From positions 4,547 to 68,546 of the forward strand of contig JACPJW010000001.1 of assembly GCA_016187335.1 (NCBI GenBank): a stretch of DNA of 64,000 nt, written 5' to 3'. Every line of letters starts with the position of its first letter. Positions within the stretch are counted from its first letter, which is position 1. A program made the position numbers and the translations under genes. Below the pieces are notes generated by a model. That model was not told the DNA's origin, did not search any database, and saw only the letters and a list, made by a program, of their open reading frames with translations. This stretch comes from Candidatus Aenigmatarchaeota archaeon. Its GTDB lineage: Archaea > Aenigmatarchaeota > Aenigmatarchaeia > GW2011-AR5. Shown in pieces: positions 2,332-61,380 of this stretch.

Positions 2332-3594
2332 TCAGCCGCATGTGCATGTTCCGTCCGATGCGACCCCGGAGGAGCATGTCCCGAAATTGCCGCCCGATTT
2401 GACGCATATTACCTTCCCGGTTCCGTCTCCCGAGACGCCGTCCGCTCTGATTTCGCCTGCAACGTCAAGCATGGCGTCGGGCGTCGTGTCGCCGATACCT
2501 ACATTACCGTTCTTGTCTATCCGCACGGCACTCACAGATCCAGCTCCGCCAGTAGTTCCATTATGCACGTTGATCTGGAGCTCGCCTTCATCCCCATCCG
2601 AACCCGGTTGGATTGCCAGTAATGAGACCGAGCGGAACAGAGTCGCGGCATCGCTATTCAGGTTGTTAAAAACGAGAAAGCCGAATGGATCTCCAGCCCC
2701 GCCCGGAGTTCCAGCAACGTTGAAGCTCGCCCTTGAAGAGCCGCCGTGCATCACGAAGACGTTCTTGTCATTGGTAATGGCTGTGGGGTCATTCGTCCCG
2801 ACAGCCAGTATGGAGTTGGCGTCGTCCCAATAGAACTTCGTGATGTTCTGCCTAAAAATCCCGTTTGCTCCTGAAAAAATGACTGAACCTGACGTGAATG
2901 TGGGATTCTGGATTGTTGATGCATTTAGGAATGTCGTAGCGTTGATACCCCCGCCGTGCACTATCACATTCGCGTTCTGGAAATCCACGTAAGTCCCGCT
3001 GCTCGCGTCCCCTATCCTGTTCACCTCGCCGCCCGTGCTGCGGAATTTCGTGGGGCCGCTTACAAGCTCGCTGTTAACGTAAATGCACATCCAGTAGTCG
3101 CGGTTGAAGTCCAGCCACAGTGTATCGCCTTCGCCAAGCGTGAGCGAGAACGTGCCGGAAGATATCGAGCTGCTGAACGTCTCGTCGTAGATGACGCCGG
3201 CGGTGCACGATGTCGCGTTGCTGACCTTGATCCTGACGGACCCGCTCGACAGCGCAGTGCCGTCCGTCTTGTTCGTCGCCTTGCCCTGCACGGACATAGT
3301 TGTCGGCTGGGAGTGATGCTCAAGCAGGTCTCCTTGCAGGGCAGAAGATATTCCCAACTGGGAGTTTTGAAGAGACTGGGCAAACCCGGCGTTTATCCGG
3401 CCTGGTGCAGAAGAATCCTTCGCCTCTGTCTGCAGCTGGTATTTAGTATCTTCATGTTCGGCATTGTCGTATTGCGAATCACTGAGAACGAGAGCAGCGG
3501 TAAAAACATAGACCGTAAGCATAAATACGGTTTTCAGAATAATTGAGCGCCCTTTGTTCATGCTTGCGCGCCCGGCCTTACGTCGCAGTCCCAT
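2332..3594 (-). CDS. Secreted surface protein with tail-fibre-like C-terminal motif
   Basis: N-terminal TM/signal. Gly/Ser/Thr/Asn-rich beta-helix-like repeats. C-terminal block IDKNGNVGIGDTTPDAMLDVAG resembles the NGNVGIGTTxPxxxLxV motif of tail-fibre domain proteins. C-terminal Cys cluster. Confidence 0.5.
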   Translation of the reverse strand: MGLRRKAGRASMNKGRSIILKTVFMLTVYVFTAALVLSDSQYDNAEHEDTKYQLQTEAKDSSAPGRINAGFAQSLQNSQLGISSALQGDLLEHHSQPTTMSVQGKATNKTDGTALSSGSVRIKVSNATSCTAGVIYDETFSSSISSGTFSLTLGEGDTLWLDFNRDYWMCIYVNSELVSGPTKFRSTGGEVNRIGDASSGTYVDFQNANVIVHGGGINATTFLNASTIQNPTFTSGSVIFSGANGIFRQNITKFYWDDANSILAVGTNDPTAITNDKNVFVMHGGSSRASFNVAGTPGGAGDPFGFLVFNNLNSDAATLFRSVSLLAIQPGSDGDEGELQINVHNGTTGGAGSVSAVRIDKNGNVGIGDTTPDAMLDVAGEIRADGVSGDGTGKVICVKSGGNFGTCSSGVASDGTCTCG

Positions 3595-8074: not shown

Positions 8075-8884
8075 CTAAGATTTTTTTAGGGAGTTCAGAA
8101 ATGCTGCCGCAGCAATCCCTAATGAAATTCCAACGGGAGGAGTGAAAAGTAGAGAAAAAATGGAACTTAGAACTAAGGCCAGTATTATATACATTGGTCT
8201 TGGGTCTTTTTGCACACTACTTATTATTTTTTCTTTAAGAGTTTTTTCTCTCAGTTCCAAATCTGTAAATTTCTTTTCTCGAACTTTAATTTGATTTATA
8301 CTTTCTAGACTTCCAAGTGTGTTACGGTCAATGTATTTGTTGTTTAGAATTTCGATTGCAGTATCCTTTAAATTCGAAATTAGTGATTTATATATGATTA
8401 AAGAATCTTCTTTTAAAGCAATTTCAATTCTTTTCAAAAGTAATTCTATATTTCTTAGCGAATATAATATTGTAATGCTATTTTCATCCAATGTTTTTTC
8501 CATATCGATTTCATCAAAATAATCCTCCATAGTTTTTCTGAGTTGTCTAATGATATTCTCAATAGATTTTCGATTATTTTTACGAAGTTCTGATGATAAA
8601 CTGTAAAGATTGTAACTAATTTTTTTATATAAAGCAATTTTTTCTTGTGGAAATAATGAGTAAAGAAGTGCTCCGGTGAGTATAATGAAAAATATAAATG
8701 TAGAGGCAAAATTATTTTCGAATGTAGGGTTTGCAGTGTAAATAATCCTGTAAGGTGAAATAAAAGTTACTATCAAAGCAATTATAATTGTAAAAATAAG
8801 TATATTTCTTTTACGCTTTATGTTTTTGTCAATACGCTCTTTAATTTCATCTATTTTATCCTTTATTTCAGTTTCGTTTTCCAT
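8075..8884 (-). CDS. Hypothetical coiled-coil membrane protein (strongly AT-rich gene)
   Basis: 269 aa, Lys/Ile/Glu/Asn-rich. TM segments near residue 30-80 and at the C-terminus. Base composition is far more AT-rich than the flanking rnz and aspS. Confidence 0.45.
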   Translation of the reverse strand: MENETEIKDKIDEIKERIDKNIKRKRNILIFTIIIALIVTFISPYRIIYTANPTFENNFASTFIFFIILTGALLYSLFPQEKIALYKKISYNLYSLSSELRKNNRKSIENIIRQLRKTMEDYFDEIDMEKTLDENSITILYSLRNIELLLKRIEIALKEDSLIIYKSLISNLKDTAIEILNNKYIDRNTLGSLESINQIKVREKKFTDLELREKTLKEKIISSVQKDPRPMYIILALVLSSIFSLLFTPPVGISLGIAAAAFLNSLKKS

Positions 8885-16618: not shown

Positions 16619-19294
16619 TTACGGGCAGTATTGCCCCCATTCGTCCTCGGTAGGCTCCGCTCCCGAGCAGCAGGCCTGTCCTTCGCTTATTGAATAATAT
16701 TGATCCACACAGCTTACTTGAGTGAATTTGTCTTCGCCGCCGGTTCCGCTACCTCCGCCTGATGAGGGGCAGTAATAATATCCGTAATAATCCTGGACAG
16801 GCTGCTCGCCGGAACAGCACTGCTGCGTATACGGGTCAACATCCATGTAGTCTTCAACGCAGCCCGCAGGAACAAAGTCGTCCCAATAACCACCGCCTCC
16901 TGACGACGAGCTGCTTGTTTGCGCCAGGAGGTTGCTGGTCGCATCGTCCGCCCACACCCAGCATTGCGTTTCCGCGTCTTCGCCTTCAAATGTCTCGTAG
17001 CTCCCTATGCAATCGCCAGTGCTTTCTGAATCCACGCACCAGTAAGAGTATCCCGTATCACTGCCAACATCCGTAACAGCGCAACCGTAGAATGCATTTT
17101 CGCCTGCTGTCGCTCCGGCTGGTTCAAATCCCGGACCTGCTGCGAGCGTGTCGGAAGGGAGTTCCCTTTCTATCTCTGCTATAGTCCTGGTTCGTGTCGC
17201 TGCTGGTGTGCATGTTTCAAGGGTTCTGCTGCATCCCAATCCTCTGTAAACATACGCATCAGCGCCCATATCGTATTCGCATGAACATGCTCCGGCTGTT
17301 GTTCCTGTTTTGCTCTGCGCTGCTGCAACCGTGCACTCTCTGTCAGCATATAAAGTGGAAAGACAGTCGCTTCTTGCTCCGCTGGGATAGCACTGGTATC
17401 TTCCGGAATTATCTTTGCATAACTGGCTCGTTTCCTGCGCGGAAGTGGTTTTCTGCGCCGCTGGTGTTCCTTCCTCTACAACGCAATAGCTGTTCTTTGA
17501 AACAAGCTTCTTTCCTGCATCATTTGCATCACAGCATTTCGCACCTGAATCAAGGAACCCTCTTTCCTTCACGCAAGCCTGCCGGCCGTAAGGGAAGGAA
17601 GTAACGGACTCCGCTGTCTTGGGTTCTTCTGGTTTTGCTGACGTTCCTTTGTCTCCCAGCGATTCGCGTTTCGCTCCCCATGTCAGGCAGCACGTGTCGC
17701 CTTCGCCGGCTGTAGTGCATGACTGGGATTCCCTTGAAGACGAGGAGCTTCGCAGCCATCCCTTGCTTATTACGCAGTTCTTGTATGCTTCGCTGCTGCT
17801 GCTTATGCATTCGCCCTTGAGCTGGGCGCAGTATGTCCTCTTTGCTGCCGCCGTCGTTGCCGCGCCGCTTTTCTTGGCTTCGCATTCTTCTTTTGTTGAA
17901 TAAGATGACAAAGTCCTGCTGGGGTCGCATTCTGTAACGCACACTTCTGCGTATTCTCCCGAATCCGGCTCGTCAAGGGCGCAAAGCTTGTATTTCTGTT
18001 CTGCTGCGGCCTCGCCGTATTTGACAATAACAGCAAACCTGTCGTAAGTCTTGCCGTCAGCAACAAGCTGGACAGTACCGGTGTCAATGCTTGCTATCGG
18101 CCTGCTTCTCGCTGATGCCCTTGTCCTTTCCCGCAGGACTTCTTCCGTTGGCACGCTTCCCAGCACGTCGCCCGGTTTCAATGTATCTTTATACTTATTC
18201 AAAGCCGCCTGGCATTGAGAAAGCGCTGTGGAGCCTGCATAGCCTTCTGCTTTCAACACATCAAAGCCTGTATCGTACGGCAGTTCGCCGGAGCTGTCCC
18301 CGCATTTCTGCCTGCAGTATATCTTTTCCGTCAATGATGCTTCGTCGTACGCGGAGCACGCAAAAACGTTCTGCGACACTGCTACGGGTTTCGTTACTGT
18401 GGTGACAGGTCGCGCTGGCGCTTTTGTTGCTGGGGGTTTTGCAGTAGTTATCGTGGGTTTTTTAGCAGCTGCCTCGCTCTCACGTTGTTTTGTCCTTGCC
18501 TCGGCTTCCGCTTTCTGGCGGGCGTTAAGAACTGACGGTTCCGCAGGCTCTTTCTTTCCGCCTATGTTTATGCAGCATTCCTCTTCAAGTTTGCACTCCG
18601 AGACAGTTCCCTGAAACACTGTCCCGCCCAACTGGTCGCACCCGCTGGCTCCAAGTACAGTGTTCTTTATTCTTGTGCATCTCCCGTTAAGAGGCTGGCC
18701 GCTGCATTTTGGCGCAGAGCCTACGCGAATACAGCTTTCCCACCATGAACATCCCTCGCGGTCCAATCCTTCTCTTCCAAAGCCTAAGAATCTGCATTCG
18801 CCTTTCCTTCCGTACTGGTCTGTATCCGTGCACTTCAGTTTTTGAGAAGTCGGCGCGGCGGCGGGCGGCGGAGCAGGAGATGACGCCTTTGAAGCATCGG
18901 TCTTTGCCTTTTCACATTCAGCTTTTGCATAAGGTCCGCCTTTCGCGTACTGGGATTCGTCATTACAGCTTTCAAGGCAGTCAAATCTTTTGCTGTCCCT
19001 TACATATCCGCACAGGTAAAATTTCCCTGCAGTCTGCATCCCCGTTATCGGAATAGCCGCCTCTTCCTGCAGCGCCGCTTTTTCCTCCTGCGGCTGCAGC
19101 GCAAAGTATGTTCCTTTGTCCGTGTCTACCTTCACAACAGAATACGAAGCGAAGCCCGTCGCAGCAGAAAGATTTATCTGGGAATAAAAAATTGCCATCG
19201 CAACCAGCAGGGAAGCTGCAAGAATGTAGCGCGACGAGGGCACATTATGGCTCTTTTCGCCTTTGGAATGCTTTCTGTATTTCCGTGGCATCAA
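16619..19294 (-). CDS. Very large secreted Cys-rich surface protein (paralog family 2)
   Basis: N-terminal signal/TM. About 60 Cys. Thr/Ala/Pro-rich linkers. Shares blocks with 19419..21632 (LNARQKAEAEARTKQ, KLKCTDTDQYGRKGEC..GFGREGLDREGC, KIYCRQKCG, SQSCTTAGEGDTCCL). Confidence 0.6.
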   Translation of the reverse strand: MMPRKYRKHSKGEKSHNVPSSRYILAASLLVAMAIFYSQINLSAATGFASYSVVKVDTDKGTYFALQPQEEKAALQEEAAIPITGMQTAGKFYLCGYVRDSKRFDCLESCNDESQYAKGGPYAKAECEKAKTDASKASSPAPPPAAAPTSQKLKCTDTDQYGRKGECRFLGFGREGLDREGCSWWESCIRVGSAPKCSGQPLNGRCTRIKNTVLGASGCDQLGGTVFQGTVSECKLEEECCINIGGKKEPAEPSVLNARQKAEAEARTKQRESEAAAKKPTITTAKPPATKAPARPVTTVTKPVAVSQNVFACSAYDEASLTEKIYCRQKCGDSSGELPYDTGFDVLKAEGYAGSTALSQCQAALNKYKDTLKPGDVLGSVPTEEVLRERTRASARSRPIASIDTGTVQLVADGKTYDRFAVIVKYGEAAAEQKYKLCALDEPDSGEYAEVCVTECDPSRTLSSYSTKEECEAKKSGAATTAAAKRTYCAQLKGECISSSSEAYKNCVISKGWLRSSSSSRESQSCTTAGEGDTCCLTWGAKRESLGDKGTSAKPEEPKTAESVTSFPYGRQACVKERGFLDSGAKCCDANDAGKKLVSKNSYCVVEEGTPAAQKTTSAQETSQLCKDNSGRYQCYPSGARSDCLSTLYADRECTVAAAQSKTGTTAGACSCEYDMGADAYVYRGLGCSRTLETCTPAATRTRTIAEIERELPSDTLAAGPGFEPAGATAGENAFYGCAVTDVGSDTGYSYWCVDSESTGDCIGSYETFEGEDAETQCWVWADDATSNLLAQTSSSSSGGGGYWDDFVPAGCVEDYMDVDPYTQQCCSGEQPVQDYYGYYYCPSSGGGSGTGGEDKFTQVSCVDQYYSISEGQACCSGAEPTEDEWGQYCP

Positions 19295-19418
19295 ATATCA
19301 ATTGTTATTTGTGATAAGTGAAATAAATAGATTTTCGCCAAGACGGGAAGATGAAATACTGCAGCTTCGTTCCATGAATTTCCGTTTGACAATATCATAA
19401 GGAATAGAATTATGCCCT

Positions 19419-21632
19419 CTACGCGCCGCAGTAAAAGCTGTCCCACCCTTCGCCGCATCCCTGATAGACGGAGTAGTCGAGGTCATAATCGTAAACGCAT
19501 TCGCATGTATCCGTCTGGTCAGACGTCGGCACGAATTCGTCTCCGCCTTCAAATCCGCCGCCTTCGGCCGGAGTTCCCTGCCATTCTGCAGCAGGCGCCT
19601 TCAGTTCCCTGCCTGTTTTTTGCTCGCATTCTTCTTTAGGCATGTCTGATTCAACAACAGTATCCCAGCCGCAATCAGATGCTTCAGAGCAGTATTTAAC
19701 ATTATAGACATCGCCGTAGTAATCCGTCTCCTCGTATGAGCACAGCACCCTCGGCTCAAACTTCAGGCAGCACGTGTCGCCCTTGCCTGCTGTAACGCAC
19801 GACTGCGAAGCTGATGAATATGAAGGGCTTGTCAGTTCCAATCCTGTATAACATGAATCAACGCTTGAATCCACGCACCTGCCTATGAGGTCCTCGCAAT
19901 AAGTCCTTTCTGCAGCAGGCTTCGCAGGCTCGGCCGGTTTCGCGGGCTCTGCAGGTTCAGCAGCTTCGGCAAATCTGATGATTACTGCTGTCCTGTCGTA
20001 AGTATTTCCTTCAACAGTCAGCGTCTGGTAGCCCAGGTCAACGCTTTTTATCAAGTCGCCGTGAAACAGCGACCCAGGACTCAATTCATCTTTGTATTTC
20101 TTCAAAGCGACCTGGCAGTCAGAAAGGTAATCAAATCCATTTGACCTCATGATGCCTGTATCGTAAGGGTCGTTGAATATTCCTTCCAGGGCGTCCCCTC
20201 CGTTCTCCGGCCCGCACTTCTGCCTGCAGTATATTTTCTGCAGCAGCTTATCAGGTAGCAGACTCCCCGGCGGTTCCCCTTCATATCTAGTGCACCCGTA
20301 AAACGTCGTGGCGCGCAGGACTTCGGACGTGGTCGTCGTTGCGCCGCGCGTAGGGGTTGGCGCGGGCGCTGAAGGTTTTGTAGCCGCTCTTGAAGGCACT
20401 GACGATTCAGTACATAAAACATTTCCCTGTTCATCATTAACAGGATTGAGTCCTCCGCAGCATGACTCCCCTGCTTTTGTTATGTAATCACCTTTCTTCA
20501 CGCAGGAAGGTCCTGGTGCTTCAGGCACGCCCGTTTCTCTTTCCAGCCTTTTCTTGACAACTTCGCATTGAGCAAGGGTGCTGAATCCGCTCTCAAATCC
20601 TTTCACACTTACTTGGTAATCCGTAGCTGTCTTGTCACACTCAAAACCGCAGTAATACGGAACGTTTGTCACTAAAAACGTGGTTCTGCATAATTTATAA
20701 TAGCGGGAAACAGAAGGCGCCGCAGGCACTGCAGAAGATTTTACGCACTGCCTGTTTTTGGAAACCAATCCTTCGCAACAGCTGTCTCCAGACCTTTCAA
20801 TAAACTGTCCTTCCTTGACACAAAACGTTCTTGCAGCAGGCTGCGCTGCTGCAGGCTTCACGCATTGTTTATTTTTGGAAACAAGACCTTCGCAGCATGC
20901 ATCCTTGGCTCTTTCAATATATTGTCCTTCCTTGACGCAGAATTGTGCCGGTGGCTGCGCTGATGGTGTGGTAACTTTGTAGCATGCACTCCAGAAATCA
21001 CATCCCTCGCGATCTTTTAGTTGTTCCCTGCCAAAGAAGCCTTGCCAAGTACATTCTCCTACAACACCTTTGGAATCCTCTTGCCAGCATTTGAGTTTAG
21101 CAGAAACCGAAGACTGTGCAGCTGCTGACGGCTGTGCTTGTGATAGCCCCGCGGATGCTGCAGCTCCCTGGGTGCTCTCGCTCTGCCTTGTTCTCGCCTC
21201 GGCTTCTGCCCTTTGGCGGGCGTTAAGTCCCGATGCTGCGGATGGAGTTGATGGCTGCACTGATGGAAGCGCTCCTCTAAGACAGCATGCACCTGTATAT
21301 CCGCATGAGCCAGCTACCTCGCTGTCAGGACATGGCGAACCAAGAAGAAAGTAGGGTTTTCCTTTGCACTCAGCGCTGATTCTTGGATTATTCGCGCATG
21401 TTTTTTGCTGAGGCCGTGTTCCGGCTTCTTCCGTCGCAAATCCCGTCACCGGCACCGCAGCCTTTTCTTCCTGCACGTCAACGTAAAAAGAGCCCTGGGC
21501 AAGCTCGGGGTGCGCTTCGGTAAAATCTGTCACAAGCCCCGTCACGGAGCCTTTCACGTCTAAAGCCGAATAGGCAAACGCGAGGGAAACAAATAAGAAA
21601 AGCACCCCTAACTCTTTCAGAATGCGGGACAT
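19419..21632 (-). CDS. Very large secreted Cys-rich surface protein (paralog family 2)
   Basis: Signal peptide. Shares conserved Cys-containing blocks with 16619..19294. The upstream ~25 nt (21633-21660) are similar to 19295-19320. Confidence 0.6.
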   Translation of the reverse strand: MSRILKELGVLFLFVSLAFAYSALDVKGSVTGLVTDFTEAHPELAQGSFYVDVQEEKAAVPVTGFATEEAGTRPQQKTCANNPRISAECKGKPYFLLGSPCPDSEVAGSCGYTGACCLRGALPSVQPSTPSAASGLNARQRAEAEARTRQSESTQGAAASAGLSQAQPSAAAQSSVSAKLKCWQEDSKGVVGECTWQGFFGREQLKDREGCDFWSACYKVTTPSAQPPAQFCVKEGQYIERAKDACCEGLVSKNKQCVKPAAAQPAARTFCVKEGQFIERSGDSCCEGLVSKNRQCVKSSAVPAAPSVSRYYKLCRTTFLVTNVPYYCGFECDKTATDYQVSVKGFESGFSTLAQCEVVKKRLERETGVPEAPGPSCVKKGDYITKAGESCCGGLNPVNDEQGNVLCTESSVPSRAATKPSAPAPTPTRGATTTTSEVLRATTFYGCTRYEGEPPGSLLPDKLLQKIYCRQKCGPENGGDALEGIFNDPYDTGIMRSNGFDYLSDCQVALKKYKDELSPGSLFHGDLIKSVDLGYQTLTVEGNTYDRTAVIIRFAEAAEPAEPAKPAEPAKPAAERTYCEDLIGRCVDSSVDSCYTGLELTSPSYSSASQSCVTAGKGDTCCLKFEPRVLCSYEETDYYGDVYNVKYCSEASDCGWDTVVESDMPKEECEQKTGRELKAPAAEWQGTPAEGGGFEGGDEFVPTSDQTDTCECVYDYDLDYSVYQGCGEGWDSFYCGA

Positions 21633-21859
21633 CAGATATCAGATGTTATTTGTGAGACCCAGAACTTAAAGTTTTTTTGCAGAATTGCCGGAATCTCTTC
21701 GCATCTAGGACAGGATTTAGACCTCAAGCAGCTTGAAGCACAAAGTGCTTCGGTTTGTTTGCCTTGATTAACAACCTTTTAAAAAGACTATTATCTAATA
21801 ACATGAAAACGGTAAAATCACAAAAATGATAGACATGAAAAAGAGGGCGATGGTTTGCT

Positions 21860-22646: not shown

Positions 22647-22901
22647 TCAATCTTCTATAGCGAATCTTATTTTTTCTCTTATGGGTATTTTCCTTATATC
22701 CGTTGGAAGTTCTTCCCCGTCTTTTACAAGGCTCTCGCAATAAAGCCTTATGGCTTCCCTTACGTTTTTCTTTGCTTCAGCCAGCGTGTCGCCTTCCGTT
22801 ATGCAACCCGGCAGAGAAGGAACCAAAACAGTATAGCCGCCTTCCGGTTGAGGCTCAAATATAACAGTGTATTCCAGATACTTCATTTTTTTCTTTCCCA
22901 C
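22647..22901 (-). CDS. hicB: HicB-family antitoxin
   Basis: YTVIFEPQPEGGYTVLVPSLPGCITEGDTLAEAKKNVREAIRLY, the HicB/UPF0150 signature. Confidence 0.75.
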   Translation of the reverse strand: MGKKKMKYLEYTVIFEPQPEGGYTVLVPSLPGCITEGDTLAEAKKNVREAIRLYCESLVKDGEELPTDIRKIPIREKIRFAIED

Positions 22902-22951: not shown

Positions 22952-23221
22952 TCACGCGCAGCTGCACGCGCAGTAGTACACCGTATCGTTTGCTCCGGTC
23001 ACGTTCGCATTGTAGAAGGTGAGGTTGTTCCCGGTGCATGTGGTGTTGCACCAGCTGCTGCACATCTTGTTGGGAGTGAACGTGTCGTCTATGAGGGCAG
23101 CGGCGTAGAAGTCGCTTTTCAATAATTCAAGAGAGAATTCGCGCAAATTTGCAGATGATACGCACCCGGAAACAAGGAGAACCGCAGCAAGCGCGATTAA
23201 ATATTTCACAAAGACTTTCAT
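22952..23221 (-). CDS. Small secreted Cys-rich lipoprotein
   Basis: Internal Met start gives MKVFVKYLIALAAVLLVSGC lipobox. Mature part carries eight Cys (CSSWCNTTCTG...CACSCA). Confidence 0.4.
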   Translation of the reverse strand: MKVFVKYLIALAAVLLVSGCVSSANLREFSLELLKSDFYAAALIDDTFTPNKMCSSWCNTTCTGNNLTFYNANVTGANDTVYYCACSCA

Positions 23222-23256
23222 AAAGACTATCTTAAGGTGCAAAAATTTTAAAGACT

Positions 23257-24063
23257 TTAGAAACCGCTCTCCATCAGAATTTTCTCCGGGTTTTCCAAGA
23301 ACATTTTTTTCCAGATAACTTTTCCTTTCCTCCTGGTGTAATTTTTTACAATATAATATCCTATAGAATAGCCTGTCCACATTGGATATCTTACGCTGCC
23401 GTAAAGCACTTCCTGACGAAGATTGGGATTCTTGGAATTCAGCTTGTTTTTCATTCTTCTGAAAAAAGTTCTTGCTTCCTTTTCAGTAAGTGCTTTCGAC
23501 CAAGGGCTTGGCTTTCCGCTTAGAACAGATTCGCAAAAATCCTCTGCGATACCTTCATCTATCATCGCTTCTAATAGCGTTTTATTTTTGTGATAACCAG
23601 ACGTTGCGGCATGCGCATATTCGTGGCATATAGTGTTTGCAAGGGATTTTTGCCATTTGGATTTCGGATGGACAAAAATTGTAATTACATTTTTCCACAC
23701 GCAGAATCCGGAAGAACCTGACAAATTTTCCTTTACAAATCTGCTGTTCGTCGGAAAAATGAAAATCTTAATGTCAGAAAGCGGAACAGCTTTCTGGCAT
23801 TTTTTCAGCGCAGCAGTGATTATCCTTACTATTCTTTTTTCATCATTTTTTCCGAATGGTGGAATTCTGCCTCTGCCAATGCCCCACAAAAGATGCTTTC
23901 TCAACGCGGATTTTTGCCTGAACCCTGCATAGCCGGTATCAGAAAAGAAAAGAATTTCTTTTAGAACATCTTCAATAAAATCTTCTGTTCCGTCTTCATG
24001 ACTATTGATGAAAGTATATAGATGACTGTCGTAGATTCCTGCATTTATTTTGTAGTGCTTCAT
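23257..24063 (-). CDS. Putative Zn-dependent protease (DUF2268-like)
   Basis: HExxH-like ICHEYAHAAT motif at ~residue 135 of a ~270 aa protein. Confidence 0.45.
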   Translation of the reverse strand: MKHYKINAGIYDSHLYTFINSHEDGTEDFIEDVLKEILFFSDTGYAGFRQKSALRKHLLWGIGRGRIPPFGKNDEKRIVRIITAALKKCQKAVPLSDIKIFIFPTNSRFVKENLSGSSGFCVWKNVITIFVHPKSKWQKSLANTICHEYAHAATSGYHKNKTLLEAMIDEGIAEDFCESVLSGKPSPWSKALTEKEARTFFRRMKNKLNSKNPNLRQEVLYGSVRYPMWTGYSIGYYIVKNYTRRKGKVIWKKMFLENPEKILMESGF

Positions 24064-24073
24064 GAAATTATGT

Positions 24074-26464
24074 TTATTTCTTCCTTCTTATTTTTATTTT
24101 CCTTTTTCCGCCGGCTGTTTTCTTCTGCATGTAGAGCCAGTAGCCGAACGCCGCGATAAACAGCAGGCCGATCAGCTGCACAGAGCTGAATTCCGCAAGC
24201 CCTTCTGCGAATATGAGAACGGACCCCACAGCCTCGTACTTCTTCCCGCTGCTCCTGCTCGTCGCCGTGTATTTTATTCCGTACGAGCCGGAGCGGGCGG
24301 CCGTATCCATAAAAACTGAAACGCCCTTGCTGCCCAGTGCCGGAACATCAAGCACGGCTGCGTCGTTGTTGCCCTGGACAATTGAGCAGCCAGAAGGATT
24401 AGGGCATTCCGCGTGCATCCACTGCAGCGGCGTCACGGGGTCGTCCGACGGCTTTGAAGCTAAATCGAACGTTGCAGCTTCCAGGGGATTCCACACAGTG
24501 ACGTCGTAAGCCTTCTTATCCAGCTCGCCCGCGCTGAACCGCTTCTCAACAGGCACAACAGTGACGCGCGGCGTGCACGTGACAAAAAAGCGGAACTGGT
24601 TCACGGCGCTTAATCCCTTGTCAGGGTCCCTTGTCTTGTTCGAAAGTATGTACAAAGTATGGTAAGCGTCGCAGCTTAACGCTGCTGTAGGCGGGCTTCC
24701 GACAAATGCGTTGTCAAAATCATTCCAGCTCAGCTTTTTCCACTCAAACCTGTCTATGTCGTAAGACGCCTCGCAGTCGGCATCGTTGCATTCCTTCAGC
24801 GATGACGGATTCCCCAGAATGCCCTGCGTGACGCGCGCCAGAAAGTTGACGTTGGTGCCTCTGGTCAGGTTCGGCTCGCCTGTTGGCGTATAAGGAAACA
24901 ATTGGTTGACAACGTCAGGATATTCAACTGTGGTGCGCAAATAGCGGTTTGTCACATTCAGGTTCTTGCATCCAGGCGGAACGCACGGTGATGGCTGACC
25001 CGGCGGTATGGGTCCCGGAGGCTTCGGCTCGTTGGCAGCTGAGTATGTCACGCCGAATGTTCCGGGCTTCGTGGAGTTCCACGCCCCGGTATTGTCAACA
25101 GCAACTACGTAGGCGGTGTAGCTGCCTACGGCGAGCGATGATGTATCATAATAAGTGCACCTGTAGATGTTCCCGGAAAACAGCAGCATTTCACAGAACT
25201 TCGCCTCGCATCCGGTCGCCGTCACGTTGTTGCACGCCTTAACAGCGGAAACGGCAACATCGTCTGTCACGTCCGCGGAAAATATCACCTCGTTGCCTTG
25301 CATCACCATGCCGGGCACTATCGTGAAATTGCTTATCTGCGGCAGCAGGTTCACGCCGAAGGTGTCAGAGCCGCACCCCTCCAGCCCCTCGCTCTCAACG
25401 CATCCTGTTATTTCAGATTTGTACCTGCTCGTGTCAATCTCAACAACCCATCTCTTGTTGCTGTCGTCATAATTGCTGTTCTGGTTCCAGTTTTCCGCAA
25501 GCAGATAGTTCCTTTCCTTCGGCGTGCCTTTGTCTATGGTTATGCTTCTTATCGTAGTATCTGTCCTCGTGCAGTCCCTGCGGGCGCCCTGCGCATCGAC
25601 AAGGTAGCACGATATGTACGCGTAGACCTTCTCGCCCTCGCGCGGGTATTTGTTGGAAACAGCTGTTGTCACGTAGAGCCGCGCGGTTCCCTGCTCGAAG
25701 CGCTGCACAGTGAAGGTCGCTGTCTTTGTCGGCGAGAGCAGCGTCCCGTCGAAGGCCCTGCAATATACCGTCTTCGCCCCGGCTGAATTGCCCCACGGGT
25801 TCGTGTCAAACGTGCACGAAGGGTTCTGCGGCACGTAGCTGCTCGTGCACGCGTTGTTGCTTCCTTCAGCCGTTCCGCACTCCAGCCGGATGTTCTGGCC
25901 GTCCGGATCCGAGGCGCTGCTCGATATCGTTCCCCTTTCGTTATTGTCGGCGTTGATGACCGAAGGCGACACGCTTATCCAGTCAAGTGCCGGCGCCCTG
26001 TTCGGCTGCGATATGCACTGGCCATTTACGCACTGGTATTCGCACGCCTGGCAGTTCGATGACTGCGCTCTTGTTTGTGTCACGCTGTAGGTGCACTGGC
26101 CCTGGGTCGAGCTGCATGAATAATCCCTGTATTCCTGGTTCTGGAAAGTGCACTTCTGGTTGCCGGAGCATCCCTGGTAAGTTCCGCCGGTGTCGAACCA
26201 TCCGTTCTCGCGGCATTGCCACGTAACAATTAACGTGCACGAGCCGCAGTCGGCAGCGCATCTGCCGCAGTCTTCGTTGAACGTGAACCACATGCCGCTT
26301 TCGCATATGCCGTTGCCGCATAGAGGGTCCTCCGTGCCGCCGCGTCCCCCGTCATGGTCGGCGTAAACGATGCTTACTGAAAACATGACGGCAACAAAAA
26401 TGATTATTGTTGCTAAAAAAGCTGGCTTAGGGACCGCAATAACTTCATCCTTTTCGCGTGTCAT
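24074..26464 (-). CDS. Large Cys-rich cell-surface protein with C-terminal membrane anchor
   Basis: N-terminal signal. CGNGICE..CGRCAADCGSC module. Many Cys pairs and Ig/beta-sandwich-like regions. C-terminal TM followed by a basic tail (KKTAGGKRKIKIRRKK). Confidence 0.6.
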   Translation of the reverse strand: MTREKDEVIAVPKPAFLATIIIFVAVMFSVSIVYADHDGGRGGTEDPLCGNGICESGMWFTFNEDCGRCAADCGSCTLIVTWQCRENGWFDTGGTYQGCSGNQKCTFQNQEYRDYSCSSTQGQCTYSVTQTRAQSSNCQACEYQCVNGQCISQPNRAPALDWISVSPSVINADNNERGTISSSASDPDGQNIRLECGTAEGSNNACTSSYVPQNPSCTFDTNPWGNSAGAKTVYCRAFDGTLLSPTKTATFTVQRFEQGTARLYVTTAVSNKYPREGEKVYAYISCYLVDAQGARRDCTRTDTTIRSITIDKGTPKERNYLLAENWNQNSNYDDSNKRWVVEIDTSRYKSEITGCVESEGLEGCGSDTFGVNLLPQISNFTIVPGMVMQGNEVIFSADVTDDVAVSAVKACNNVTATGCEAKFCEMLLFSGNIYRCTYYDTSSLAVGSYTAYVVAVDNTGAWNSTKPGTFGVTYSAANEPKPPGPIPPGQPSPCVPPGCKNLNVTNRYLRTTVEYPDVVNQLFPYTPTGEPNLTRGTNVNFLARVTQGILGNPSSLKECNDADCEASYDIDRFEWKKLSWNDFDNAFVGSPPTAALSCDAYHTLYILSNKTRDPDKGLSAVNQFRFFVTCTPRVTVVPVEKRFSAGELDKKAYDVTVWNPLEAATFDLASKPSDDPVTPLQWMHAECPNPSGCSIVQGNNDAAVLDVPALGSKGVSVFMDTAARSGSYGIKYTATSRSSGKKYEAVGSVLIFAEGLAEFSSVQLIGLLFIAAFGYWLYMQKKTAGGKRKIKIRRKK

Positions 26465-34316: not shown

Positions 34317-34958
34317 ATGATTTTTATGCCTAAAAGAAAACCGAAGCGGGCAGTGAAAAAGAAAAGCCCCCTTTACGTTATCCTTGTTCTAGGCGTCATC
34401 GCGCTGTTCGCTGTTGTGTATTCGTACCGCGGCGCTGCGCTGGTGAATGCCAGCGCGGACGACGATCCTTCGCTGGGCAGTGAAAACGCCCCTGTCACGA
34501 TGATAATGTTCAGCAATTACGCCTGTTCGTTCAGCAGGGACTTCTGGCAGGACACCTTCCCGCTTCTGAAGCAGCAGTATATAGACACGGGCAAAATCAG
34601 GTTCGTTTTCAGGGATTTCCCCGTTCAGACGCCAGGCGTCATTGATTCCTCGCTCGCTGCGGAGTGCGCCGACGACCAGGGGAAATTCTGGGAATACAAC
34701 AATGCGCTTGTCAATTCCGTCCGCATCGACAAGGACAGCCTGAAAGAATACGCTTCTGATCTTGGCCTGGATACGGAACAATTCAACAGCTGCCTCGATT
34801 CGCAGCAGCGTCTGGCAGAAGTCAGGAAGGACTTCAGCAACGGCGTTTCCTACGGCGTCCGCGGCACGCCCACGTTCTTCATCAACGGCCTGCGCGTCGA
34901 GGGCGGCGAGAGCTTTTCGTTCTTCGCGCAGCTGATTGAGAAGGAATTGGCGAAGTAA
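34317..34958 (+). CDS. DsbA-family thioredoxin-fold protein with CxxS active-site variant
   Basis: N-terminal TM. MIMFSNYACSFSRDF (C-S-F-S in place of CxxC). C-terminal RGTPTFFINGLRVEGG. Confidence 0.65.
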   Translation: MIFMPKRKPKRAVKKKSPLYVILVLGVIALFAVVYSYRGAALVNASADDDPSLGSENAPVTMIMFSNYACSFSRDFWQDTFPLLKQQYIDTGKIRFVFRDFPVQTPGVIDSSLAAECADDQGKFWEYNNALVNSVRIDKDSLKEYASDLGLDTEQFNSCLDSQQRLAEVRKDFSNGVSYGVRGTPTFFINGLRVEGGESFSFFAQLIEKELAK

Positions 34959-42601: not shown

Positions 42602-44005
42602 CTAAATGAATATTGAATATGTCGTCAAAGCTACATTATCATTTCCGTTTTTTGCCCAAAGTACAACAGTATAGACTCCACTCCCCTTAGAAAGAAGCGG
42701 TTGAATATTCGCTGTAATTGCAAAGCTTCCTCCGTTTACGTGCCATCTTGATGCCTCAACGTATTTGTAATTCATACTTGAAGTGTCATAATAAGAGCCT
42801 AGAGGTGGTGGTGCCAAAATATATCCTGCTTCATCTCCAAGACTATAAGCACCTCTATAAAAATAACTTAGCAAATCGCTCTGAGTAAGCCGCACAGGAG
42901 TCAGGTCATAATAGAGTGCAACATTCTGTATTGTTCCTAAAGACGATGTGCCTTCCATACTAAGAATTCCAGAACTGTAACTTATTGGTTCTGACCACAA
43001 AATGTAATCATCCTCGAAATCCTGCACATATGCAAGATGCGTGCTGTCATAAGCGATTCCTATGTTGACTTTATTATGATTTTTATCAAGAATGTTATCT
43101 CTATGTCCCCAATTTGAGTCCGCATCATCATTTACCATTTGATATTCATGAGTTTCGATACTTTCTTTCGGATCTATTGTTACGGCATTAGGTTCATAAT
43201 AAAAGAAACCAGAAAACGCAGCATTTTCGGCTATAGACCCTTTGCCTCCTGCCTTTGTATATCGCATATATGGTTTAGACCCGTCGCTCCCCCAATGAGA
43301 AAGAAATCGGTTTTCAATCATATCTTCTGCATGTTGTTGGGCTGCGTTATTATTGCCTAATGCTACGGGCTTAAGCCCATTTTGTGTTCTATCCTCGTTA
43401 ATCAATTGTAATGCATAATTGCGCAATTCCTGAAGTGTATACTGCTTTGGTTGTGCAAACCTTGTTTCTACCGTCGGTCTATAAACTTGTCTACTAAAAT
43501 TAAGTGTTATTTTGTTAGTGTCGTTAAAAGAAATGTTGGGCAAATAACTCGATACTTTGCTCCAATTAGTGTAAATCAGAAACCCAGCTACTATCAGAAC
43601 GATAATAAAAACCACAGTTCTTGACACTTTTATTTCGTCTTTTTTTGCACGTTCATATGGTATCGGAATACCATCTTTGAAAACAACAGACGGCTCTTCG
43701 TGATGCTTGATTGGCTTCGACTTTACAAACTTATCTAAGGCCTCTTTATATTGTTGCAGTTTTCGTTTGTTTTCTTCTTCCCAATGCTCCAAATAAGGTG
43801 GACAAGGATGTCCTCCAGGCTTATGCCATTCTTCCATAAAAAGTCTGTCTTTCTGAGTAGAACCTTCAAATCTAGGAAGGCCAGCCGGCTTTGGCCTGAT
43901 ATGCACATTGCAGAAATACTTTTGGCAATACCGACATTTTTTGAAGAATTTGTTACCCATGTCGCATAAATGGTAATTGCATTCTATCCTCCGATTTTTA
44001 ACCAT
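42602..44005 (-). CDS. Membrane protein: N-terminal AN1-like zinc finger, TM, extracellular CAP/SCP-like domain
   Basis: Cys/His cluster CNYHLC..CRYCQKYFCNVH..H..HPC. One TM. LSHWGSDGSKPYMRY...GENAA CAP-domain-like block. AT-rich gene. Confidence 0.5.
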   Translation of the reverse strand: MVKNRRIECNYHLCDMGNKFFKKCRYCQKYFCNVHIRPKPAGLPRFEGSTQKDRLFMEEWHKPGGHPCPPYLEHWEEENKRKLQQYKEALDKFVKSKPIKHHEEPSVVFKDGIPIPYERAKKDEIKVSRTVVFIIVLIVAGFLIYTNWSKVSSYLPNISFNDTNKITLNFSRQVYRPTVETRFAQPKQYTLQELRNYALQLINEDRTQNGLKPVALGNNNAAQQHAEDMIENRFLSHWGSDGSKPYMRYTKAGGKGSIAENAAFSGFFYYEPNAVTIDPKESIETHEYQMVNDDADSNWGHRDNILDKNHNKVNIGIAYDSTHLAYVQDFEDDYILWSEPISYSSGILSMEGTSSLGTIQNVALYYDLTPVRLTQSDLLSYFYRGAYSLGDEAGYILAPPPLGSYYDTSSMNYKYVEASRWHVNGGSFAITANIQPLLSKGSGVYTVVLWAKNGNDNVALTTYSIFI

Positions 44006-59712: not shown

Positions 59713-61026
59713 CTATTTCTTCAATATTTTGATTCCGAGCTCTTTTTCCAGTGATTCCTGCTTCCTCGGCAGGGAGCCCATGATGTACGGCGATTTGACG
59801 CCCGTGATGATGGTGATGACCTGGACCTTGTGCGCAAATTCCGGCAGTATGCGCGCGCCCCAGATTACCTGCGCGCTCGGGTCCAGCTGCGACTGCACGT
59901 AGTTGCCTATCCTGTTCACTTCCTCCAGGCGCAAATCAGGCCCGCCCGTAACGTGAACCATTGCTCCCTTTGCGCCGTTGTAGTCGACGTTGAGCAGCGG
60001 GTGGTTCATGGCTCGCTGCACCGCAAGCTCAGCGCGGTCCTCGTCCTCGGCATTCCCTACGCCGATAGCGGCAACGCCTCCGTAGCGCATTATGGCCTTC
60101 ACGTCGGCGTAATCCAGGTTGATGAGGGACGGCTCGTAGATGGTCTCTGTTATCCCTTTTATCATTGAAGCAATCAGCCCGTCAGCAATGCCGAAAGCAG
60201 TCTTGAGCGGCAGGCTCTTGCCTAATTCAAGCAGTCGCTGGTTTTCTATGGCGATTACGGTGTCGCAGCTCTGGCGCAGCGCAACCAGGCCCTCTTCGGC
60301 TTTGACGGCGCGGGCGCCTTCCAGCTTGAGCGGCAACGTCACTGCAGCAATAACTATGGCGCCGGCATCCTTGGCAAATTTTGAGATAACAGGCGCGGCT
60401 CCCGTTCCTGTTCCGCCGCCGAGTCCGCATGTCACAAAAACCAGGTCTGTGTCCGCGAGCAGCTCCTTCAGTTCTCTTTTATTTTCCATGGCGGCGTTCT
60501 TGCCGACATCCGGATATCCGCCGGCTCCCAGGCCCTTTGTCAGGTTTTTTCCGATAAGCACCTTCTGCTGCGCCTTCGTTATGTGAAGGTGTTTTGCGTC
60601 AGTATTGACAGCCACGGTCATCGCCCCGCTCACGCCCTTTTCGGTCAGCGCGGTTATGGTGTTGTTCCCTGCGCCGCCGACGCCGATGACCAGGATGCGC
60701 GCCTTGAACGCTTGGAATTCTTGCACATTATCAAAAGTAAGCCCGCTGTTCTTCTTCGGCTCTGGTGGAACCTGCTCTACCACGGGTTCTGCTATGGGTT
60801 CTGCTGCAGGCTCTATAGAAATAGGCTCATTTTGTACAGCCGGTTGTGCTTCTTGCATATCAGGAACTACAACTTCTTGTATTTCTGCAGCAGGAAGTGT
60901 TTCCTGGCTTTCAGCAGAAAAAACCTCTTGAACAGGTTCAGCTGGCCCTGCTGCCGGCACTGACGCTTCCGCATTTTCAGCAGCCGCAGCCTCGGTATTT
61001 TCTGTTATTTTTTCTTCCTCGGACAT
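59713..61026 (-). CDS. ftsZ: Cell division GTPase FtsZ with ~110-aa acidic/Pro-rich N-terminal extension
   Basis: VIGVGGAGNN and GGGTGTGAAPV tubulin motifs. Start chosen at MSEEEK (ATG 61024-61026); the ORF continues upstream to 61203 without an obvious alternative. Confidence 0.85.
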   Translation of the reverse strand: MSEEEKITENTEAAAAENAEASVPAAGPAEPVQEVFSAESQETLPAAEIQEVVVPDMQEAQPAVQNEPISIEPAAEPIAEPVVEQVPPEPKKNSGLTFDNVQEFQAFKARILVIGVGGAGNNTITALTEKGVSGAMTVAVNTDAKHLHITKAQQKVLIGKNLTKGLGAGGYPDVGKNAAMENKRELKELLADTDLVFVTCGLGGGTGTGAAPVISKFAKDAGAIVIAAVTLPLKLEGARAVKAEEGLVALRQSCDTVIAIENQRLLELGKSLPLKTAFGIADGLIASMIKGITETIYEPSLINLDYADVKAIMRYGGVAAIGVGNAEDEDRAELAVQRAMNHPLLNVDYNGAKGAMVHVTGGPDLRLEEVNRIGNYVQSQLDPSAQVIWGARILPEFAHKVQVITIITGVKSPYIMGSLPRKQESLEKELGIKILKK

Positions 61027-61041
61027 GGTTCTCCCACGGTT

Positions 61042-61049
61042 GTATATAA
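61042..61049 (-). promoter_or_regulatory. TATA-box-like element for ftsZ
   Basis: TTATATA on the minus strand ~20-25 nt upstream of the chosen ATG. Confidence 0.3.
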
Positions 61050-61380
61050 CCGAAAATATACTTTCAGGCATCAAAAACTTCTTTTTAACCCCGTGATATA
61101 TTCCCATGTCCAAAGAATTAGTCCAAACGGTAAATATTTCCAAATTCGCTAGAAAATGTCCCAATTGTCCAACCGATTGTCCAGATCGGAAGTGCAATAA
61201 CATTACGTCCCTGTCCAGGGGATGTAACTGATTCTTTTTTCTTTACCCAAGTTAAAAAGGATTTGTTTACTGGAGCATATATGTTAAATTGGCGGGTGGT
61301 TTCCTGTTTTATTCTGAATGTTAACCTACGCGAGTTGTAAGGGAAGAGTAGCTTAACGGAACAGAAAGATGTAAATATAA

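Follow-up and report, generated by a model that had tools for sequence, protein, structure and literature searches.

Two adjacent minus-strand genes, termed A and B here, lie within a 64,000-nucleotide (nt) stretch of the small genome of a Candidatus Aenigmatarchaeota (DPANN) archaeon (assembly GCA_016187335.1, contig JACPJW010000001.1, positions 4,547 to 68,546 of the forward strand). This whole stretch is referred to as the window, and coordinates are those of the window unless another contig is named. By sequence comparison A and B are tandem paralogs derived from an ancient duplication, and their large, cysteine-rich products make up a real and well-defined orphan family, new both in sequence and in the modules of which its members are built. 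The general kind to which it belongs is familiar, namely modular proteins that a symbiotic-type microbe secretes, rich in cysteine and confined to its lineage. We tentatively favor, with slightly less than even confidence, a reading in which A and B would be a co-expressed, exported and disulfide-stabilized modular pair, with the conserved N-terminus staying at the membrane and the variable modules facing outward to form, under diversifying selection, a coat or adhesin on the cell surface.

Paralogy and Orphan Status of A and B

The two genes and their products, with lengths in amino acids (aa), are as follows:

16619..19291, minus strand, gene A (A-type paralog), 890 aa with 52 cysteines, identical to MBI2578092.1
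19419..21632, minus strand, gene B (B-type paralog), 737 aa with 44 cysteines

The open reading frame (ORF) of gene A, at 16619-19294, opens at a TTG codon, and the ATG at 19291 yields the 890-aa product present in both the NCBI and the Logan gene calls. MBI2578092.1 (HYW26_00100) is annotated as a hypothetical protein of a Candidatus Aenigmarchaeota metagenome-assembled genome (MAG), on a 918-kb contig, and the exact sequence of B is present on Logan contigs.

An earlier note on this DNA had described the two proteins as paralogs sharing a set of sequence blocks, all in the same order. Paralogy was confirmed by BLASTP, with expect values (E) of 5e-19 for the region KIYCRQKCG...TYDR...SQSC..DTCCL, 2e-9 for the N-terminus plus the KLKC block and 3e-6 for the LNARQ(K/R)AEAEART block; the best match was still at E=1.4e-14 under the SEG low-complexity filter, and every block that had been quoted was found in both proteins. 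The common order, however, did not hold, because B has a 6-Cys module and the LNARQ block followed by KLKC, whereas A has KLKC followed by the 6-Cys module and the LNARQ block. At the DNA level the two genes were 93% identical over 27 nt in the KIYCRQKCG block, 80% over 54 nt in the LNARQ block, 75% over 73 nt in the SQSC..CCL block, 70% over 57 nt in the TYDR block and 84% over 31 nt in the leader, while the coding regions reached ~33% identity in their best blocks. A BLAST search of the 248 ORFs of the window revealed no third paralog.

Neither A and B nor three related proteins found in the searches below (P0001, P0002 and P0004) matched any family in Pfam or NCBIfam, and PDB sequence and profile searches assigned A and B to no family. 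When B was compared by exhaustive phmmer with 1.84 billion representative proteins, there were just three matches, i.e., A itself, P0002 (943 aa, found in a Logan assembly) and P0001 (1000 aa, HY368_00120 of an NC_groundwater Aenigmatarchaeota MAG). A word-index protein search with full-length B found only P0001; the exhaustive phmmer run is the informative search where absence is concerned. A contig scan of GTDB species genomes gave a single match, the Aenigmatarchaeota MAG JACQIH01, and scans of JGI metagenome contigs and IMG/VR viral contigs gave no relatives. Across all of these collections, the search for homologs in metagenomic and archaeal proteomes that the earlier note had proposed thus placed the relatives in two other Aenigmarchaeota assemblies only. 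Its suggestion of an undescribed family with no known domain was likewise upheld: Pfam, NCBIfam, the PDB sequence and profile searches, and Foldseek searches with two modeled domains were all empty, and a literature search found no earlier description of the modular cysteine-rich pair, its locus or its promoter.

Modular Architecture

Cysteine makes up ~6% of the residues of A and B, and histidine 0.2-0.3%. The 52 cysteines of A and 44 of B group into recurring 4-Cys and 6-Cys modules. The cysteine total is even, and the spacing within modules conserved, in all six family proteins, i.e., A, B, P0001, P0002, P0004 and a partial B-type protein from a second genome (L006, see below). Beyond their N-terminal regions, A and B each consist of 10-14 small cysteine modules strung between spacers rich in Thr, Ala, Pro and Ser. 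A and B are acidic, with isoelectric points (pI) of about 4.8-5.0, and the range across the 737- to 1000-aa proteins tested was 4.8-5.4. One 4-Cys module has the pattern [FY]x[LAG]C...[YF]xC-x3-6-C...C and is of a beta-hairpin-plus-helix type; two further 4-Cys types are the KLKC and the CxC modules, and there are also a 6-Cys module that ends in CC and a C-CC-C module (CVKEGxFI..G..CC.GL....C) with four invariant cysteines. Following the N-terminal hydrophobic region is a conserved post-signal segment of roughly 40-60 aa, with the pattern ...TG...G[ST][FY][YF]...Q(PQ)EEKAA...[IV]P[IV]TG[FM].

The features of A, from the N-terminus, are as follows:

19157..19291, minus strand, residues 1-45, basic n-region plus hydrophobic segment, putative Sec signal or signal-anchor
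19028..19156, minus strand, residues 46-88, post-signal segment ATGF..GTYFALQPQEEKAA..IPITGM, also found in B and in the orthologs
18722..18844, minus strand, residues 150-190, KLKC 4-Cys module
18563..18715, minus strand, residues 193-243, 6-Cys module with a beta-defensin-like cysteine framework, matched at E=9.5e-9 by a profile of the L006 repeats
18476..18529, minus strand, LNARQKAEAEART block, 80% identical to the copy in B at the nucleotide level
18011..18376, minus strand, residues 306-427, conserved 4-Cys plus beta-hairpin domain (KIYCRQKCG ... GKTYDRFAVIV)
17678..17839, minus strand, residues 485-538, conserved 6-Cys module (RTYC..SQSC..DTCCL)
16622..17584, minus strand, residues 570-890, variable C-terminal module string, in the order C-CC-C (570-606), 4-Cys (621-659), CxC (667-697), 4-Cys (733-783), C-CC-C (808-844) and C-CC-C (858-890)

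Those of B are as follows:

21561..21632, minus strand, residues 1-24, putative Sec-type signal or anchor
21273..21407, minus strand, residues 76-120, 6-Cys module
21174..21227, minus strand, LNARQRAEAEART block
20967..21101, minus strand, residues 178-222, KLKC 4-Cys module
20736..20948, minus strand, residues 229-299, pair of adjacent C-CC-C modules produced by a 117-nt tandem duplication
19968..20312, minus strand, residues 441-555, conserved 4-Cys plus beta-hairpin domain, modeled as described next
19758..19907, minus strand, residues 576-625, conserved 6-Cys module (SQSC..DTCCL)
19422..19754, minus strand, residues 627-737, 4-Cys module (627-675) and C-terminal CxC 4-Cys module (708-737)

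Two domains were modeled with AlphaFold2, as the earlier note had suggested, and neither had a structural match to a known fold. For the conserved 115-aa domain (B residues 441-555), a 29-row alignment gave a model with a mean predicted local distance difference test (pLDDT) score of 79.6 and a predicted template modeling (pTM) score of 0.72, with the C-terminal half above 90. The model consists of a beta-hairpin, a loop, a helix and a long beta-hairpin; Foldseek returned no match to it, and this one domain probably represents a new fold. For the conserved 6-Cys module (B residues 570-625, five sequences), the model had three short strands at low confidence (pLDDT 60.4, pTM 0.40), and a Foldseek search against the PDB gave no match.

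Conservation and Turnover at the Locus

The locus is carried by two other genomes, L006 and L007. The gene order in L007 (DUF655, B-type, A-type, ..., Rpo4, L21e, Pus10) matches that of the window. In L006 the order is B-type, A-type, Rpo4, L21e, Pus10, and the contig ends inside the B-type gene, leaving the DUF655 side outside view. The MSRI.KEL... N-terminus of B is found in the B-type proteins, P0001 and the partial protein of L006; the long basic N-terminus of A and its version of the core are found in the A-type proteins, P0002 and P0004. Since both paralog types occupy the same locus in two other genomes, the duplication is old and precedes the split of these lineages.

A and B evolve far faster than the genes around them. 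The neighboring housekeeping proteins of the window were 81-94% identical to those of L006 and 64-86% identical to those of L007, whereas overall identities between orthologs were 51% for A and 40% for B against L006, and 11% and 12%, respectively, against L007. Conservation is a mosaic. The first 50 residues of B were 78% identical to those of P0001, with no convincing alignment of the remainder (28% in a gapped global alignment); the KLKC module was conserved at 60%, and the core, i.e., the 115-aa domain with its adjacent modules, at 73-80%. Outside the conserved N-terminus, KLKC module and core, modules have been gained, lost or moved. The L006 B-type protein (L006 1-2550) contains eight 6-Cys repeats between TSEVLREG-type linkers, and P0001 contains more than ten 4-Cys repeats. 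In B itself, the copies of the 117-nt tandem duplication (20736-20948) are 75-88% identical and give two adjacent C-CC-C modules, which is direct evidence of module duplication. Hidden Markov models (HMMs) built exclusively from modules outside the window supported the relationship of modules across proteins: the 6-Cys HMM matched A 195-242 at E=9.5e-9, and the C-CC-C HMM matched three modules in B and one in A. Together these results show evolution by duplication, loss and shuffling of modules, with the N-terminus, the KLKC module, and the 115-aa domain and its 6-Cys neighbor being kept.

Several other observations concern the locus and its proteins. The stereotyped linker (V)PTSEVLREG precedes most of the eight 6-Cys modules of the L006 B-type protein, and EVLR-type motifs occur in the window as TSEVLRA in B (residues 435-441) and EEVLRER in A (residues 383-389). 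The A-type orthologs (L006 3366-6197 and L007 5523-8453) finish in short hydrophobic, disulfide-loop-like tails, ECPWGFFCDIF and LCFFGFCV, which the A and B proteins of the window lack. Toxin-antitoxin genes are found in or beside the syntenic locus, with a HicB-like gene in the window (22647-22901, minus strand), and DUF433/DUF5615 genes (2697-3308) and HicA/HicB genes (8149-8589) in L006. The DUF433/DUF5615 genes lie between the B-type and A-type genes and the HicA/HicB genes farther along, and the locus appears to tolerate insertions. A 219-aa protein adjoining the pair in L007 was considered as a relative of a 219-aa ORF of the window, and proved to be unrelated.

Putative Promoters of A and B

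The earlier observation that the sequences just upstream of the two ATG codons are similar was correct. The window contains exactly two copies of a 26-nt leader, TCACAAATAACAnnTGATATnTGATG (19289-19314 and 21630-21655), where chance would give none; each copy terminates in ATG, and the copies are identical at 22 of 26 positions. The upstream elements, including a putative box resembling a transcription factor B recognition element (BRE) and TATA box, are as follows:

19292..19314, minus strand, leader or promoter-proximal element of A, TCACAAATAACAATTGATATTTG, immediately upstream of the ATG
19322..19336, minus strand, BRE/TATA-like box of A, GAAAATCTATTTATT, lying ~31-45 nt before the ATG, a putative promoter element judging from its conservation in five promoters
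21633..21655, minus strand, leader or promoter-proximal element of B, TCACAAATAACATCTGATATCTG
21663..21677, minus strand, BRE/TATA-like box of B, AAAAAACTTTAAGTT, likewise putative

Five upstream regions from three genomes could be aligned (window A, window B, L006 A-type, L007 A-type and L007 B-type). All have a purine-rich, TATA-like box (GAAAATCTATTTATT and variants), followed after ~7 nt by TCACAAA(T/A)A and then by TGATG, which includes the start codon. Many other genes of the window have a TATA-like box 25-35 nt ahead of the ATG, and some have a GGTG Shine-Dalgarno sequence. Judging from the usual archaeal distance between the TATA box and the transcription start site, each of the two genes would have its own transcript, with a leader no longer than roughly 10 nt. 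The motif TCACAAAWWA was also considered as the mark of a wider regulon, and was rejected when just two further matches were found, both inside ORFs and at a frequency expected by chance.

The leaders of A and B in the window share an extra 7 nt (ATnTGAT) that is missing in all three orthologous promoters, and the LNARQ block, at 80% DNA identity between A and B, is missing in the L006 orthologs. The shared insertion and the LNARQ identity, both lacking in the L006 orthologs, suggest a short-tract exchange between the paralogs in this lineage. We therefore depart from the earlier note, which had explained the similar leaders by duplication of each gene together with its leader. The duplication is old, coding identity is ~33% as against 22/26 for the leader, the promoter is conserved in the orthologs, and the 7-nt insertion is shared. 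This points to a conserved archaeal promoter kept alike by selection and conversion, and not to a relic of recent co-duplication.

Probable Export and Disulfides, and Sequon Depletion

The N-terminus of B reads MSRILKE-LGVLFLFVSLAFAY-SAL, with a hydrophobic segment at residues 10-24, and that of A reads MPRKYRKHSKGEKSHNVPSSR-YILAASLLVAMAIFY-SQINLSAA, with a hydrophobic segment at residues 24-38. The maximum 15-residue Kyte-Doolittle hydropathy of these segments was 2.30 for B and 2.24 for A. On this hydropathy reading both proteins begin as Sec substrates do, i.e., with a basic n-region, a hydrophobic segment of ~14-15 residues, and then small residues. No type IV pilin-like signal, lipobox or PGF-CTERM was seen on reading the termini of A and B. 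The sequence [IV]TG[FM] was discarded as a general motif when A and B proved to be its sole carriers among window proteins with an N-terminal hydrophobic segment.

Over the six family proteins, the sequon N-x-S/T was observed once, compared with 17.6 occurrences expected, and none of 5000 shuffles gave a count this low; A has one sequon and B has none. The remaining proteins of the window were not depleted (77 sequons observed versus 75.2 expected). We read this avoidance as the likely outcome of selection on proteins that encounter the N-glycosylation machinery on the outer side of the membrane. The window also encodes a membrane-anchored, DsbA-like thioredoxin-fold protein (34317-34958, plus strand; Thioredoxin_4 E=1.8e-30, DSBA E=2.8e-15), which is a plausible oxidase for extracytoplasmic disulfides. 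The earlier note's description of A and B as disulfide-rich extracellular proteins is thus supported indirectly, by the Sec-type N-termini, the even and modular cysteines, the sequon depletion and the DsbA-like gene in the window. A and B would most likely be surface proteins.

Instead of forming structural disulfides, the same cysteines might serve in metal binding or redox reactions, as in a metallothionein-like, Fe-S or electron-transfer protein. Of the features of A and B, only the high cysteine content (~6%) would fit such a function, which we regard as most improbable: histidine is nearly absent (0.2-0.3%), there are no CxxCH motifs and no CxxC clusters, the cysteines come in strict fours or sixes with conserved spacing and even totals in all six proteins, and the N-terminal export signal and DsbA-like gene favor oxidation outside the cytoplasm.

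A more serious alternative, although one that we consider unlikely, is that A and B are two components of an S-layer, i.e., lattice and stalk, like SlaA and SlaB of Sulfolobales, instead of flexible, adhesin-like fibers. Both proteins are large, acidic (pI about 5) and apparently secreted, they are encoded in tandem with strong-looking conserved promoters amid housekeeping genes, and they combine very fast divergence with a narrow distribution, as is usual in S-layer proteins; S-layer genes have also been reported in most Aenigmarchaeota MAGs (PMC8407114). However, there was no match to an S-layer family in Pfam or NCBIfam, small disulfide modules on long low-complexity linkers are unlike compact lattice-forming domains, A and B have no C-terminal anchor or PGF-CTERM, and another candidate envelope protein, with a C-terminal membrane anchor, is encoded nearby (24074-26464). 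Archaeal S-layer proteins are normally N-glycosylated, whereas sequons are nearly absent from the family proteins. Like SlaA and SlaB, A and B are large, acidic proteins that evolve fast, are encoded in tandem and would be secreted to the envelope; they differ from SlaA and SlaB in having no sequence or domain similarity to them and no C-terminal anchor, in being sequon-depleted where those are heavily N-glycosylated, and in being cysteine-rich and modular.

Resemblances of the Small Modules

A profile made from fourteen 6-Cys modules matched two chains alone among all PDB sequences (E<=10). One was Defensin-BvL (2MN3; E=0.0038), with the six cysteines and a GxC in register and the score carried by the cysteines, and the other was a tick carboxypeptidase inhibitor domain (2K2Z; E=0.32), from a protein with the beta-defensin fold. 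That fold is a three-stranded antiparallel beta-sheet with disulfides C1-C5, C2-C4 and C3-C6. A likeness to it would lie in the arrangement C-x6-8-C-x5-C-x8-14-C-x5-8-CC, with Gly-x-Cys at the second cysteine. Spacings in the L006 B-type repeats (6,5,8,6,0; 6,5,14,5,0; and 6,6,12,5,0) are near the beta-defensin framework C-x(4-8)-C-x(3-5)-C-x(9-13)-C-x(4-7)-CC. Those in the window are looser (8,12,14,5,0 and 6,10,18,8,0 in A; 9,11,8,5,0 and 6,7,17,8,0 in B), the loops between the second and third cysteines being longer, at 7-12 residues. No Pfam defensin model matched any of the 14 modules (E<=10). The modules also sit inside acidic proteins of 700-1000 aa, whereas defensins are small, cationic, separately secreted peptides.

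The sole match of the C-CC-C profile was the double-knottin Xt3a (7RZ3), at E values of 4.4 and 0.62 that are not significant. The resemblance is in C-x-EGxF-x-(S/A)G-x-CC-xGL...GY-x-C, and the two tandem modules of B align to the two domains of the toxin. The C-CC-C module, however, has four cysteines, those corresponding to the second and fifth of a knottin being missing, so that a cystine knot (six cysteines paired C1-C4, C2-C5 and C3-C6) cannot form.

Beta-defensin-fold and knottin-like domains are regarded as essentially confined to eukaryotes, and trans-defensins to animals. It is nevertheless conceivable, if improbable, that the 6-Cys and C-CC-C modules are true archaeal domains of these folds, displayed on polyvalent surface or secreted proteins that would bind or breach the membrane or envelope of a host, with the 115-aa domain as a new fold. 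A somewhat less probable variant has A and B as polyprotein precursors or carriers of defensin-like and knottin-like peptides that would attack or permeabilize host or competitor cells, either after proteolytic release or while still attached. It would account for Defensin-BvL (E=0.0038) and the tick inhibitor domain (E=0.32) being the only PDB matches of the 6-Cys profile, for Xt3a (E=4.4, not significant) being that of the C-CC-C profile, and for the L006 B-type protein repeating its 6-Cys modules with stereotyped TSEVLREG linkers in between. But these scores are marginal and driven by the cysteine framework, Pfam defensin models matched none of the modules, and the AlphaFold2 model of the 6-Cys module was of low confidence (pLDDT 60) with no Foldseek match. 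Moreover, A and B are acidic and not cationic, no dibasic or other known processing sites were evident, and the best-conserved part is the larger 115-aa domain, which is unlike any toxin.

Other Features of the Window

The other genes of the window are ordinary archaeal chromosome content, including those for Pus10, L21e, Rpo4/F, DUF655, RNase HII, malic enzyme, LysRS, GatB and FtsZ, among others. In the whole 64 kb there was no tRNA gene, and no Rfam family at the gathering threshold. Four further features were noted:

22952..23380, minus strand, small ORF with 8 cysteines, in which an internal Met is followed by a lipobox-like LLVSGC and several N-x-T sites lie near the C-terminus; the ORF overlaps the start of a DUF2268 ORF
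24074..26464, minus strand, third large cysteine-rich protein (796 aa, 35 cysteines), with N- and C-terminal hydrophobic segments and a basic tail
42602..44005, minus strand, 467-aa protein with a CAP (cysteine-rich secretory protein) domain, E=2.5e-10
59713..61203, minus strand, FtsZ homolog whose tubulin/FtsZ GTPase domain starts at residue 169, leaving a long N-terminal extension

BLAST showed no relationship of the 796-aa protein to A and B, and Pfam gave no match to it; it is a possible candidate for an envelope or S-layer protein.

Discussion

Our tentative reading of A and B as an outward-facing coat or adhesin pair can be set out as a sequence of steps. A and B would be co-expressed from short-leader transcripts and exported, and their cysteines would be oxidized outside the membrane, with the window's own DsbA-like protein as one possible oxidase. 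The N-terminus, which is unusually conserved, might then be retained in the membrane as an anchor, a role suggested by the 78% identity of the first 50 residues of B to P0001 while the rest diverges. From there the proteins would project from the cell as flexible, non-N-glycosylated "beads-on-a-string" fibers, which may contact a host cell or substrate, the variable and fast-diversifying modules serving as the contact surface.

Several points weigh against this reading. If the signal peptide is cleaved, nothing obvious would keep A and B at the cell, and both lack a C-terminal hydrophobic tail, ending in ...EDEWGQYCP and ...GWDSFYCGA. No recognizable binding or lectin domain was found in either protein. 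Just one domain was modeled at fair confidence, and its fold gives no functional lead. Regarding sequons, A and B alone give one observed versus 4.6 expected, and the six-protein statistic treats partly related orthologs as independent. Finally, an HMM of the P0001 4-Cys repeats failed to detect the 4-Cys modules of the window, and cross-type 4-Cys HMMs gave weak matches only, coinciding with module boundaries; the homology of the 4-Cys modules as a class is loosely supported.

The coat or adhesin reading does fit what has been proposed for related organisms. Lineage-specific, unannotated families of extracellular or membrane proteins have been described as typical of DPANN archaea (Castelle et al., 2021, PMC8204110), and Aenigmarchaeota have been inferred to depend on host contact (PMC8407114). 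A and B resemble those families in coming from an Aenigmarchaeota genome, in their lack of annotation, in being predicted to be secreted or membrane-bound and in their very narrow range; they differ in being an individual pair, the families having been described collectively only (PMC8204110). A more distant analogy is with the variant-specific surface proteins (VSPs) of Giardia, which likewise combine a conserved membrane-anchoring end with a rapidly diversifying, cysteine-rich ectodomain. There is no homology, and the VSPs have a C-terminal anchor, CXXC repeats and a large switching repertoire, whereas the pair described here has a putative N-terminal anchor, no CXXC repeats and just two genes, in an archaeon.

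Life in attachment to other cells is the presumed habit of DPANN archaea, and hardly any of the molecules behind this contact are known; many of their lineage-specific proteins lack annotation and have a predicted extracellular location. The A/B pair is a well-delimited candidate. A and B offer concrete targets for studies of the Aenigmarchaeota surface, in the form of antibodies, recombinant modules and metaproteomic peptides, and they provide a small model for protein evolution in which modules are shuffled and paralogs exchange sequence. Should the defensin-like framework prove genuine, that fold class would be extended to Archaea.

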